A stretch of 64,000 nucleotides of DNA from NCBI GenBank assembly GCA_016217735.1, contig JACRGQ010000059.1, forward strand, positions 5,208-69,207, given 5' to 3'. The DNA is from Nitrospinota bacterium (GTDB taxonomy: Bacteria; Nitrospinota_A; UBA7883; JACRGQ01). The position numbers were made by a program, and so were the translations under genes. The notes below the pieces were generated by a model. It worked only from the letters and a program-made list of their open reading frames with translations, searched no databases and was not told the origin of the DNA. Of the stretch, positions 7,480 through 38,872 are shown piece after piece; positions within the stretch are counted from its first letter, which is position 1; each line of letters opens with the position of its first letter.

Positions 7480-7505
7480 GGATCCCCGCCTTCGCGGGGA
7501 TGACA
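7480..7505. repeat. solo REP-like hairpin GGATCCCCGC-cttc-GCGGGGATGACA (end motif of the MITE family)
   Basis: Perfect 10-bp stem. The same motif forms both termini of the element at 38720-38872. Confidence 0.55.
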
Positions 7506-7624
7506 TCTTTGCTTTGTACTTGATACGGGGCGGAAATAACAAATCATCAGGGACGAGTGTCGTGGAGAAAATTCCTGGATTTGCCTTTGACTGAATCGCG
7601 AATCACGCTCCAGGCCGCGCCCGG

Positions 7625-8554
7625 TCAGTTCATCGACCAGAGGTAGTAGACGCCGGGCTTGTGGACGGCGACTTCGTTCATCAGCCAGTCGAATTTGCCG
7701 GCGAGGGATGTTTTTTCGCTCATCAGCTCTTTCAGCCAGAGCATTTTTTCTTCGTGGCGCACCAGCGCCGGTTCGCCGCTGATGCCGGCGAGCTGCGCCG
7801 TCAGTTTCACCGCTTCTTCCATCCCGCCCAGCGCGTCGACCATGCCGTTGTTCTTCGCCTGGTTGCCGGTGTAGACGCGGCCGTCGGCCAGTTCCCGCAC
7901 CTTCGTTTCGGGCATATTGCGCCCTTTGGCCACGGCGGTGACGAACTGGCCGTACACGTCGTCGATCATTTCCTGCACCACCTTCTTTTCGCGCTCGGTC
8001 ATCGGGCGGAAGGCCGAGCCGGTATCCTTGAACTCGCCGCTTTTCACCACCATCGGCTGCACGCCGATTTTCCCCATCAGTTCCTGCACGTTCATCAGGT
8101 TCATGATGACGCCGATGGAGCCGGTGAGCGTGCCGGGGTTGCAGATGATCTTGTCGGCCGCCACGGCGATGTAGTAGCCGCCGGACGCGCCGAGGGTGGC
8201 CATGCTGGCGACGACTTTTTTCTTCCGCCGCGCGGCGAGGATGGCGTCGTGTATCTCCTGCGAGGGGGCGACCGCCCCGCCGGGGGAATCGATGCGGATG
8301 ATGATCGCCTTTATCGCCTTGTCGTTGGCGTAGTTCTTTATCTGTTTTACGGTCTCGTCGGCGGTCATGATGGTGCCGAAGACTTCGACCACGCCGATTT
8401 TATCTTTGCCGATGGACTTGATTGTTTCGCCGCTTGAGCCGCCGCCGAAAGGAAGGAACGAGATGAGGGCGATGAAGCCGACGGAAAGGGCGATTAAAAG
8501 AACAAACCCGGCCAGCAGCCCTTTTTTATGGGAGCTATTGGCCGGGTTTTCCAT
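7625..8554 (-). CDS. sppA: signal peptide peptidase SppA (36K type)
   Basis: N-terminal TM segment, then ClpP/crotonase-fold blocks IRIDSPGG, SMATLGASGGYYIA, GSIGV. Confidence 0.85.
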   Translation of the reverse strand: MENPANSSHKKGLLAGFVLLIALSVGFIALISFLPFGGGSSGETIKSIGKDKIGVVEVFGTIMTADETVKQIKNYANDKAIKAIIIRIDSPGGAVAPSQEIHDAILAARRKKKVVASMATLGASGGYYIAVAADKIICNPGTLTGSIGVIMNLMNVQELMGKIGVQPMVVKSGEFKDTGSAFRPMTEREKKVVQEMIDDVYGQFVTAVAKGRNMPETKVRELADGRVYTGNQAKNNGMVDALGGMEEAVKLTAQLAGISGEPALVRHEEKMLWLKELMSEKTSLAGKFDWLMNEVAVHKPGVYYLWSMN

Positions 8555-8566
8555 TGTGCGGACGGG

Positions 8567-36793: not shown

Positions 36794-37714
36794 ATGGGGG
36801 TTTGGTACTACTTTTCGCCGCTGTTTCTTGAGCACGATACGGGGGATCACCCGGAAAATCCGGAGCGCCTCCGCGTCATCAATCGTGAGATACAAAAGCT
36901 GATTCCGCTCGAACAATGGATTGAACCGGCGGACGCCACCATCGATCAGGTGGCCGCCATACACGACCGCGAGTACATACAGGACGTGAAAAAAGCCTGC
37001 GAGCTTGGGGCCGATGCGCTCGACATCGATACCCCCATCTGCCCCAAGAGTTACGCCGCCGCCATCCGCGCCGCGGGGGCCGTCTGCAACGCGGTGGAGG
37101 CGGTTCTGGCCGGCAAAACGAAGCATGCATTCTGCGCCGTCCGCCCGCCGGGACACCATGCCGAGCGCGCGGCCGGCATGGGATTCTGTCTTTTCAACAA
37201 CGTCGCCATCGCGGCGCGCCACGCGCAGTCGCTCGGCGCGCGGAAAATTGCCATCGTCGATTGGGACGTCCACCACGGCAACGGCACCCAGCACTCGTTT
37301 GAAAATGACCCGTCCGTCCTCTTCATTTCCATCCACCGGCAGGGGATATATCCCGGCGGCGGCCACGACCACGAAATCGGCAAGGAAAAGGGGAGCGGTT
37401 TCACCGTGAACTATCCGCTGCCCGCCCACACGGGCGACGGCAGCTACCTCGCGCTTTTCGAGCACTCCCTTATCCCGCAGATACAAAAGTTCCACCCCGG
37501 CCTCATTCTCATTTCCGCCGGCTTCGATGCGCACGAGACCGACCCGCTCGGCGGGATGAAAGTCACCGACGACGGCTATGCCGCCATGACGAAGATGCTG
37601 GTGCGGGCGGCGGACGAATTATGCGGCGGGCGTATCGTATCGCTCCTCGAAGGGGGCTATAATCTGAACACGCTGGGGGCCACGGTGGCCCGCCATGTGA
37701 AGGAGCTTATGTAA
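36794..37714 (+). CDS. histone deacetylase-family amidohydrolase (AcuC/HDAH-like)
   Basis: Class I/II HDAC zinc-site blocks ([23 protein letters not shown]). Confidence 0.85.
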
Positions 37715-38712
37715 TGCCGCAACAACCGCTGCTGTCGGTTCAAAATCTCACCATCAGGTTCCGCACCGGGGAAGGCTTGGGCAAAGCGGTCGATAACGTA
37801 TCGTTCGACCTCTATCCCAACGAAACGCTTGGCATCGTGGGTGAGAGCGGCTGCGGCAAGACGGTGACGGCGCTTGCCATCCTCCGGCTTATCCAAAGTC
37901 CGCCCGGCGAAATCTCATCCGGCGCGATCATGTTCGATGGGGCGGACCTTCTCACGCTTCCCGAAAAGGATCTGCGCGCCATACGGGGCAACCGCATAGC
38001 GATGGTCTTTCAGGAGCCGATGACGGCGCTCAATCCCGTTTTCACCATCGGCGATCAGATTGGCGAGGTTTTCCGCATCCACCAAAATGCGTCGAAGGCG
38101 GAAGCGCGCGCCAAGGCAATCGGCATGCTGCGGCAGGTGGGTATTCCCGACCCTGAAAAGCGGGTGGATGACTATCCGCATCAGTTAAGCGGCGGGATGC
38201 GGCAGCGCGCCATGATAGCGATGGCGCTCGGCTGCAAGCCGGCCATTTTGATAGCCGACGAGCCGACCACCGCGCTGGACGTCACCATCCAGGCGCAGAT
38301 ACTCGACCTGATGGACGAGCTGAAGCGGAAGTTCGGCGCGTCCATCATCCTTATCACGCATGACCTGGGGGTGGTGGCGCAGCACGCGCAGCGGATCGCC
38401 GTGATGTACGCCGGAAAAATCGTCGAGACCTGCTCGGTGGCGCAGATTTTCAGCGACCCGAAACATCCCTACACGATCGGCCTGATGGAATCGATTCCGG
38501 CCATTCAGGACGAAGGGGACAAGCCGGTGCGGCTGCGCGAGATAAAAGGGATTGTGCCGCCGCTGCACGCCATGCCGCCCGGATGCCCCTTCCACCCGCG
38601 CTGCGTCAAGAGATTCGAGCCGTGCGACAAGGAAACGCCGCAACTGCTGGAGGTGGCCGCCGGCCACCTCTGCGCCTGCCATCTCCACATCGGCTGCGTG
38701 ACGCCGGCTTAG
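37714..38712 (+). CDS. ABC transporter ATP-binding protein, oligopeptide/dipeptide (DppD/OppD) type, no adjacent permease
   Basis: Walker A GESGCGKT, signature LSGGMRQR, Walker B ILIADEPTTALD, and the C-terminal oligopeptide-ABC extension. The start overlaps the HDAC stop (TAATG). Confidence 0.85.
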   Translation: MPQQPLLSVQNLTIRFRTGEGLGKAVDNVSFDLYPNETLGIVGESGCGKTVTALAILRLIQSPPGEISSGAIMFDGADLLTLPEKDLRAIRGNRIAMVFQEPMTALNPVFTIGDQIGEVFRIHQNASKAEARAKAIGMLRQVGIPDPEKRVDDYPHQLSGGMRQRAMIAMALGCKPAILIADEPTTALDVTIQAQILDLMDELKRKFGASIILITHDLGVVAQHAQRIAVMYAGKIVETCSVAQIFSDPKHPYTIGLMESIPAIQDEGDKPVRLREIKGIVPPLHAMPPGCPFHPRCVKRFEPCDKETPQLLEVAAGHLCACHLHIGCVTPA

Positions 38713-38719
38713 GCATCTT

Positions 38720-38872
38720 TGTCATCCCGGACCCCGACCCGGGATCCAGACATATTTTCAAAGCTTCCCTCATCGGCCCAAAGGGCCGATCCTGCCTGAC
38801 GCTATGCATCAAGGGGAAAATAAGAGAAAGCGTGGATAATATGTCTGGATCCCCGTCTGCACGGGGATGACA
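38720..38872. mobile_element. MITE (~153 bp) with hairpin-containing terminal inverted repeats, between convergent ABC-ATPase and rho genes
   Basis: Left end TGTCATCCCGGACCCCGACCCGGGATCCAGACATATT. Right end AATATGTCTGGATCCCCGTCTGCACGGGGATGACA. The internal sequence is shared with copies at 29375 and 34926. Confidence 0.65.

Follow-up and report, generated by a model that had tools for sequence, protein, structure and literature searches.

Mosaic intergenic repeats with putative NTS/SRM-type hairpin ends in a Nitrospinota genome

Results

Hairpin-ended repeats at four intergenic sites

The 64,000-nucleotide stretch of the Nitrospinota bacterium contig JACRGQ010000059.1 analyzed here (the window) carries a short dispersed repeat element. 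Judged by their sequence, its ends are oriented hairpins akin to the Neisseria Transformation Sequence (NTS) and to its diverged counterparts, the "Ssn-related motifs" (SRM). Five such hairpin ends are spread over four intergenic sites, all of which lie between convergent genes, and not three of the four as an initial annotation of this DNA had stated. The convergent pairs are AP_endonuc_2 and S49 peptidase (7478), the NIT sensor kinase and a 184-aa open reading frame (ORF) followed by aldehyde dehydrogenase (29375), M23 peptidase and a TPR protein (34827-35031), and ABC ATPase and rho (38720-38872). The parts of the copies are listed below.

7478-7505, minus strand: putative solo SRM/NTS-type hairpin TGTCATCCCCGCGAAGGCGGGGATCCAG, which fits the SRM search sequence; 43.6 bits (covariance model)
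29375-29402, plus strand: putative SRM hairpin TGTCATCCCCGCGCAGGCGGGGATCCAG, left end of a truncated element; 73.6 bits, three mismatches to the strict NTS consensus
29403-29441, plus strand: conserved subterminal segment AAATATTTTCAAAGCTTTCC and a remnant of an internal module
34827-34939, plus strand: left terminal hairpin of the element at the third locus, split by an insertion
34940-34983, plus strand: interior of the third-locus element, left subterminal segment TCATATTTTCAAAGCTT and a short core
34984-35031, minus strand: right half-element of the third locus, subterminal segment and hairpin TGTCGTCCCCGCGCACGCGGGGAACCAG; 64.9 bits
38720-38749, plus strand: putative left SRM hairpin of the complete 153-bp element, stem CCCGG/CCGGG, 8-nt loop; 65.3 bits
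38750-38844, no strand: interior of the 153-bp element, inverted subterminal segments ACATATTTTCAAAGCTT / AAGCGTGGATAATATGT
38773-38789: internal hairpin of the 153-bp element, TCGGCCCAAAGGGCCGA
38845-38872, minus strand: putative right SRM hairpin of the 153-bp element, TGTCATCCCCGTGCAGACGGGGATCCAG; 62.9 bits

The repeat family that the initial annotation proposed at these four loci is real. Matches to GGATCCCCGC-N4-GCGGGGATGACA occur at 7480 (plus strand) and 29375 (minus strand) without mismatch, and at 35006 and 38847 (both plus strand) with two mismatches each; shuffles of the window yielded none. The inner segment ATATTTTCAAAGCTT is found at 29405, 34942 and 38752, and inverted on the minus strand at 34987 with two mismatches, where 0.16 occurrences were expected. 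When the entire window was searched without filters, a covariance model of the half-element returned exactly five strong half-elements (29375-29422 and 38720-38769 on the plus strand; 34984-35031, 38825-38872 and 7458-7505 on the minus strand) and an additional weak match at 34927.

The complete 153-bp copy forms one long hairpin, with a folding energy of −39 kcal/mol as DNA (z = −5.8). It has the inverted hairpin ends described previously, but its left end carries the different stem CCCGG/CCGGG. Within it lies a TCGGCCC-N3-GGGCCGA hairpin, a module that recurs in relatives. The third copy had been delimited as a 106-bp element at 34926-35031 and in fact spans 34827-35031, or 205 bp, with an insertion of about 80 nt in the loop of its left hairpin. 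The outer half of that hairpin, TGTCGTGCCGGGCTTGAC, occupies 34827-34844, the inserted hairpin-rich module, which starts GAAGGAGCGGCGGAATAAACATGCGGCGGCGGAGCC, runs from about 34845 to 34926, and the inner half, GTGCGGCACCCGG, follows at 34927-34939. The same module of about 80 nt (GGCGGAATAAACATGCGGCGGCGGAGCC...CCGCCGC) recurs inside the loop of a terminal hairpin in L048, L042, L050 (8790-8870) and L077 (11550-11625), as it does at 34845-34926 in the window; the split-hairpin composite is present at unrelated loci. In L050 the module starts right at the ABC ATPase stop codon; the corresponding position of L052 holds a short GCGGCGG/CCGCCG terminator-like hairpin. The solo hairpin at 7478-7505 has an 8-bp stem and a folding energy of −16 kcal/mol as RNA; folding the termini as RNA, as the initial annotation had suggested, gave stable hairpins of −15 to −16 kcal/mol.

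Resemblance of the ends to NTS and SRM hairpins

The NTS, CGTCATTCCCGCGMAVGCGGGAATCYRG, includes the classical dRS3 repeat ATTCCC-N8-GGGAAT (Chenal et al., 2025, PMC11893778). SsnA, a GIY-YIG protein of about 100 residues, binds the NTS and cuts beside it, on single-stranded DNA (ssDNA) only, and the diverged SRM flank ssn homologues across bacteria (PMC11893778). Whether NTS-ssn-NTS units act as mobile elements is a question that the same authors raised (PMC11893778). When the window was searched with the SRM search sequence of that study, HGTCWYN(0-2)YYVSBRHN(0-5)WNVSBRGN(0-2)RNCYNB, four of the five ends matched (7478-7505 and 38845-38872 on the minus strand, 29375-29402 and 38720-38749 on the plus strand), compared with a mean of 0.36 matches in 200 dinucleotide shuffles. 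The fifth end, in the half-element at 34984-35031, misses by a single base, a G at a W position.

Relative to the NTS, the window hairpin TGTCATCCCCGCG-N3-GCGGGGATCCAG differs at the first base (T1) and at one compensated stem pair, in which T-A has become C-G with both sides changed. The same element has exact dRS3 hairpins in the relatives L027 and L047, with one and two mismatches to the NTS, respectively. On this likeness we place the termini, which had previously been left without a repeat family, as NTS/SRM (dRS3-like) hairpins (PMC11893778). The element would then be specific to this lineage and belong to a repeat class that was described in 2025, with roots in the Neisseria dRS3/NIME literature (PMC1797815).

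Searches of Rfam, at the gathering threshold for the whole window and at an E-value threshold for 38600-39000, returned nothing relevant. A sub-threshold match to the Bradyrhizobiaceae small RNA BjrC68 at 38838-38915 (minus strand; 19 bits versus a 39-bit cut-off) overlaps the right hairpin of the 153-bp element, and the BjrC68 family itself may contain an SRM-like hairpin. Two other readings were considered. The sequence TTTCAAAGCTTT is a conceivable integration host factor site. Sigma-54 and sigma-70 promoter readings of the ends were inconsistent between copies, the sole match being one outward ATGACA/−10 at 29380-29351. At that position, on the minus strand, the element terminus ATGACA is an outward −35-like hexamer in the consensus scan with CAAAAT 18 nt downstream, in this one copy only.

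The family in related genomes and covariation of the stem

One genome per species was scanned with the subterminal 21-mer, and real matches came only from three Nitrospinales metagenome-assembled genomes, nzgw265, nzgw266 and nzgw267. These hold at least 10 loci with the element, and the covariance model finds 13 strong half-elements in them, so further copies of the dispersed family with inverted hairpin ends do exist. A scan of metagenomes with the same 21-mer gave chance matches only, with no hairpin before any of them.

Among 18 half-elements that we compared, TGTCAT, CCAG and the subterminal segment are nearly invariant and the stem varies, its variants being CCCCGC/GCGGGG, CCCGG/CCGGG, GCCGGA/TCCGGC, GCCGCA/TGCGGC and TCCCGC/GCGGGA. 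Over the 7-bp stem, 94% of the cells are paired and double changes are seen at three of the seven pairs. The covariation score was reached by none of 500 shuffles and collapsed in slid controls. The stem is maintained by compensatory change and is under selection. Because the TGTCAT and CCAG flanks are asymmetric, the hairpin has an orientation, as in SRM, which are likewise hairpins with oriented flanks.

Gene context and transcript ends

The elements lie close to the ends of genes. The solo hairpin at 7478-7505 is 119 nt past the S49 peptidase stop and 149 nt past the AP_endonuc_2 stop, and the NIT sensor kinase stop is followed after 43 nt by the hairpin at 29375. The third-locus element starts 7 nt after the M23 stop and ends 13 nt from the TPR stop; the 153-bp element likewise starts 7 nt after the ABC ATPase stop and ends 19 nt from that of rho. 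Across 20 sites none is inside a gene, 11 are convergent, seven tandem, one divergent and one unclassified, and the enrichment at gene 3′ ends has P ~0.002 (P ~0.01 without orthologous duplicates).

The elements could accordingly be selected as RNA, as bidirectional terminators or 3′-end stabilizers between convergent genes whose dispersal is incidental. This explanation draws on the convergent setting of all four window copies and of 11 of the 19 sites that were classified, often with a stop codon only 7-31 nt away, on the stability of the hairpins as RNA, and on the empty ABC ATPase-rho site of L052, which has a terminator-like hairpin with a T-run that the element replaces in the window. 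However, no T-run follows the terminal hairpins on either strand, the tails being ATGACA or CCAG, and the consensus scan calls none of these hairpins, which leaves the earlier idea that the copies double as terminators without canonical support. Seven of the sites, including the one ahead of the promoter of the HDAC operon, are at tandem genes, Rfam gives no family above threshold, and termination does not explain the conserved asymmetric GTCAT and CCAG flanks. We therefore consider a primary role in RNA to be unlikely.

Turnover of copies between relatives

Orthologous loci were found through homologues of the flanking proteins. The 153-bp element of the window sits at the ABC ATPase-rho site. 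There, nzgw267 (L052) lacks an element and has 87 nt that include a terminator-like hairpin, L050 holds a nested mosaic of about 500 nt, and L051 has two inserted genes. The S49 peptidase-HDAC site holds a full element in L051 and a right half in L050. At the site between aldehyde dehydrogenase (Aldedh) and kinase, beside the sensor kinase stop, the window has a simple hairpin and nzgw266 a split variant in the same orientation, and in a third relative only 45 nt separate the two genes. None of five complete copies is bordered by direct repeats of 2-10 bp, and thus none shows the target-site duplications that the initial annotation had proposed to look for. G is scarce in the 12 nt 5′ of TGTCAT. 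Closely related genomes differ by gain, loss, nesting and truncation of copies, with no target-site duplication.

The window ABC ATPase is three residues shorter than its orthologues, with its stop 7 nt from the element, and from this comparison the gene end appears to have been rewritten at the element position. At 38700-38712 the window protein ends in VTPA before the stop, and the L050 and L052 relatives in VTPPVSR.

Separately, the block from S49 peptidase to aldehyde dehydrogenase (~7.6-31.4 kb, possibly to 36.7 kb) is inverted with respect to L050, L051 and L077. The window positions concerned are 7329-7440 and about 36700, and one breakpoint is no more than ~150 nt away from the solo hairpin (7478-7505). 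Immediately inside that hairpin the sequence is homologous to the flank of the L050 element, whose hairpin is oppositely oriented.

Foreign genes and cargo at element ends

The truncated copy borders a foreign gene, as had been noted. This gene is the 184-aa ORF at 29411-29965 (minus strand), which is AT-rich (GC 0.416 versus 0.62-0.63 for its neighbors) and stands where the element's right half would be. Element-derived sequence supplies its TGA stop (29411-29413) and its last ~9 codons, and these codons correspond to a tail that is unconserved among its homologues. The ORF has a weak match to DUF1780, a putative endonuclease, belongs to a rare family (63 representatives among 1.8 billion proteins) and is missing between Aldedh and kinase in two related genomes. 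Of the broader suggestion that the element shapes gene ends, this much stands: one copy supplies the end of a foreign ORF, and copies differ at orthologous sites.

Three further loci place genes at or between element ends. In nzgw266, an 847-bp unit (L045 6179-7025; JAHFEJ010000056.1) has the same hairpin and subterminal ends and encloses a HicA toxin and HicB antitoxin. At L026 651-2118 a half-element is followed by a foreign, AT-rich 382-aa ORF. At L027 1032-2960 a restriction-modification pair and a small YgiT-type zinc-finger gene abut an element whose left hairpin is halved; the foreign genes there are a DNA methyltransferase, a 189-aa ORF and the zinc-finger gene.

The window has other AT-rich genes. 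Besides a methyltransferase and a HEPN protein, an island at 10934-15180 (GC 0.39-0.51), between cmk and prephenate dehydrogenase, encodes a type I restriction-modification specificity subunit; L050 and L051 lack this island, and its borders carry no element. The AT-rich ORF at 20281-21288 (GC 0.38) has a PD-(D/E)XK nuclease domain and a weak match to the candidate defence family PDC-S26. The 261-nt periodic repeats at 8754-9622 lie within the gene for ribosomal protein S1; they correspond to its S1 domain repeats, as expected, and not to a mobile repeat.

Much of this would also be expected of a classical miniature inverted-repeat transposable element (MITE), that is, an internally deleted derivative of a DDE-transposase insertion sequence that moves by cut-and-paste via double-stranded terminal inverted repeats. 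The inverted ends of ~48 nt start TG...CA, the units measure 146-221 bp, each genome has several copies, and insertions are polymorphic among relatives. The initial annotation called the family a MITE, and the MITE-like shape stands. A DDE-type origin is nonetheless very unlikely, because the five complete copies lack duplications, neither the window nor the DNA between matching ends at the loci examined holds a transposase, HicAB being the only cargo seen, and the terminal stem covaries to keep the hairpin, for which recognition of double-stranded DNA has no need. In addition, solo hairpins and hairpin-only doublets are common in unrelated contigs.

The same hairpin beside GIY-YIG genes in unrelated contigs

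Viral contigs were scanned for the exact window-type hairpin, which gave 21 stretches. In eight of these 21 unrelated contigs a second hairpin, often of the NTS type, joins it in an inverted doublet. In four of the 21 (L002, L006, L008 and L009) it lies no more than 200 nt from a gene of ~96 codons with a GIY-YIG domain, and L009 5250-5674 is a hairpin-gene-hairpin unit with its TGTCAT ends outward, the same geometry as the 153-bp element. A homologue search with the L009 GIY-YIG protein found only Sphingopyxis and Sphingomonas proteins. Other stem variants are widespread in viral contigs, often as inverted doublets; scans of these contigs with two other variants gave many hairpins and doublets and no adjoining ssn gene. 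The annotated genes of the window include no transposase, cas, GIY-YIG or Y1 transposase gene.

Extragenic palindromes of the REP/REPIN/BIME type have a dedicated enzyme, RAYT, which is of the Y1 HUH class and recognizes single-strand hairpins with a GTAG flank; such elements are also discussed in PMC11893778. If the present elements were of this type, they would be mobilized by a RAYT transposase instead of a GIY-YIG nuclease. They do resemble REP sequences and REPINs in being extragenic, in occurring singly or as inverted doublets at gene 3′ ends, and in forming BIME-like mosaic clusters with other small palindromes. Yet the conserved 5′ flank is GTCAT and not a GTAG-type tetranucleotide, no Y1 transposase domain is present among the annotated window genes, and in four contigs the identical hairpin adjoins GIY-YIG genes and not RAYT genes, so that the associated enzyme class is GIY-YIG. 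A RAYT-driven origin is highly improbable.

Orphan or degenerate type I-E CRISPR repeats, whose CCCCGC-N4-GCGGGG stem followed by AT looks alike, can be dismissed with near certainty, since the copies are 4-22 kb apart without array periodicity, no repeat family matches the hairpins (the sole CRISPR-DR match, in the interior, has 22.7 bits versus a 42-bit cut-off), the window has no cas genes, and the stem sequence varies freely within the family.

Discussion

The window elements are, in our view probably though by no means certainly, non-coding mosaic units bounded by SRM hairpins of the Neisseria NTS/dRS3 type, and represent a MITE-shaped Nitrospinae counterpart of the dRS3-RS-dRS3 units (NIME). 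Each end is an oriented module made up of 5′-TGTCAT, an 8-bp GC-rich stem with a loop of 4-8 nt, and CCAG, followed by a lineage-specific subterminal segment of ~20 nt (AMATATTTTCAAAGCTT) and then by small internal hairpin modules, with the two ends inverted and facing outward. In the model that we favor, the hairpins would extrude in ssDNA, where an Ssn-family nuclease encoded elsewhere in the genome may bind them or cut just 5′ of TGTCAT. Spread and turnover could then follow from the activity of such a nuclease, from recombination between copies, or from both, and the sites may serve as hot spots for the landing of foreign genes and the rewriting of gene ends. Effects on transcript 3′ ends, if any, would be secondary.

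As in the NTS and SRM, the hairpin of the elements is oriented, with GTCAT 5′ of a GC-rich palindrome whose stem is followed by a C. Like them, the elements are extragenic, present in many copies, and arranged in the outward-facing geometry seen around ssn genes (PMC11893778). They differ in their Nitrospinota host, in the coupling of their ends to a conserved ~20-nt subterminal segment and, from the NTS, in the stems found in the window, CCCCGC/GCGGGG or CCCGG/CCGGG. NIME are 50-150-bp units flanked by inverted 20-bp hairpin repeats (PMC1797815). Our elements match them in unit size, inverted hairpin-repeat flanks, mosaic build and variation at syntenic sites, and also in forming mosaics or arrays with other small repeats and in their association with variable and foreign genes. 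Unlike NIME, they come from another phylum, are isolated in the window instead of forming long arrays, and have exact dRS3 in the relatives only; according to the 2007 paper, no NIME arrays had been seen outside Neisseria (PMC1797815). As with Correia elements (CREE; PMC1797815) and other bacterial MITEs, the units are ~150 bp long and intergenic with long inverted ends, at positions that can alter neighboring gene ends and expression. Correia elements, however, have TA duplications and non-hairpin ends, in contrast to the covarying hairpin ends without duplication described here.

Several points weigh against an NTS/SRM-bounded, nuclease-related system. The window copies have three mismatches to the strict NTS consensus, which allows at most one, and none has the exact dRS3 repeat ATTCCC-N8-GGGAAT, the window hairpins reading ATCCCC...GGGGAT. 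Part of the wide hairpin distribution could reflect convergence, given the similarity to other GC-rich palindromes, and differences in presence and absence could come from recombination or deletion alone. Neither the window nor ~195 kb of related Nitrospinota DNA yielded a cd10448-type Ssn/GIY-YIG gene in searches by tblastn with a GIY-YIG consensus and with a hidden Markov model built from 120 homologues. Finally, cleavage, single-strand extrusion and movement are predictions for the window elements.

A bolder version of the same idea holds that SRM-bounded units are true mobile elements, and that an Ssn-type GIY-YIG nuclease moves them via hairpin ends in ssDNA. The 153-bp element would be the miniature form, the 847-bp HicAB unit (L045) the cargo form and SRM-ssn-SRM the autonomous form of a system that extends across phyla, from Neisseria and Sphingomonads to Nitrospinota. 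As a full account this seems doubtful to us. If it were true, it would describe a transposition-like system built on a nuclease class not known for transposition.

For the mosaic units with SRM-type ends that we favor, the implications are more immediate. They would extend the NTS/SRM hairpin system and NIME-like mosaics, once thought to be Neisseria-specific, to an uncultured lineage of nitrite oxidizers. In genomes of this kind, the hairpins may account for spurious small ORFs, for changes at gene 3′ ends and for the variability of intergenic regions, which should help in annotation. The empty site, solo hairpin, 153-bp unit, nested mosaic and cargo-carrying unit also form a natural series with shared ends, which offers material for testing the question raised by the Ssn authors, namely the mobility of NTS-ssn-NTS units.

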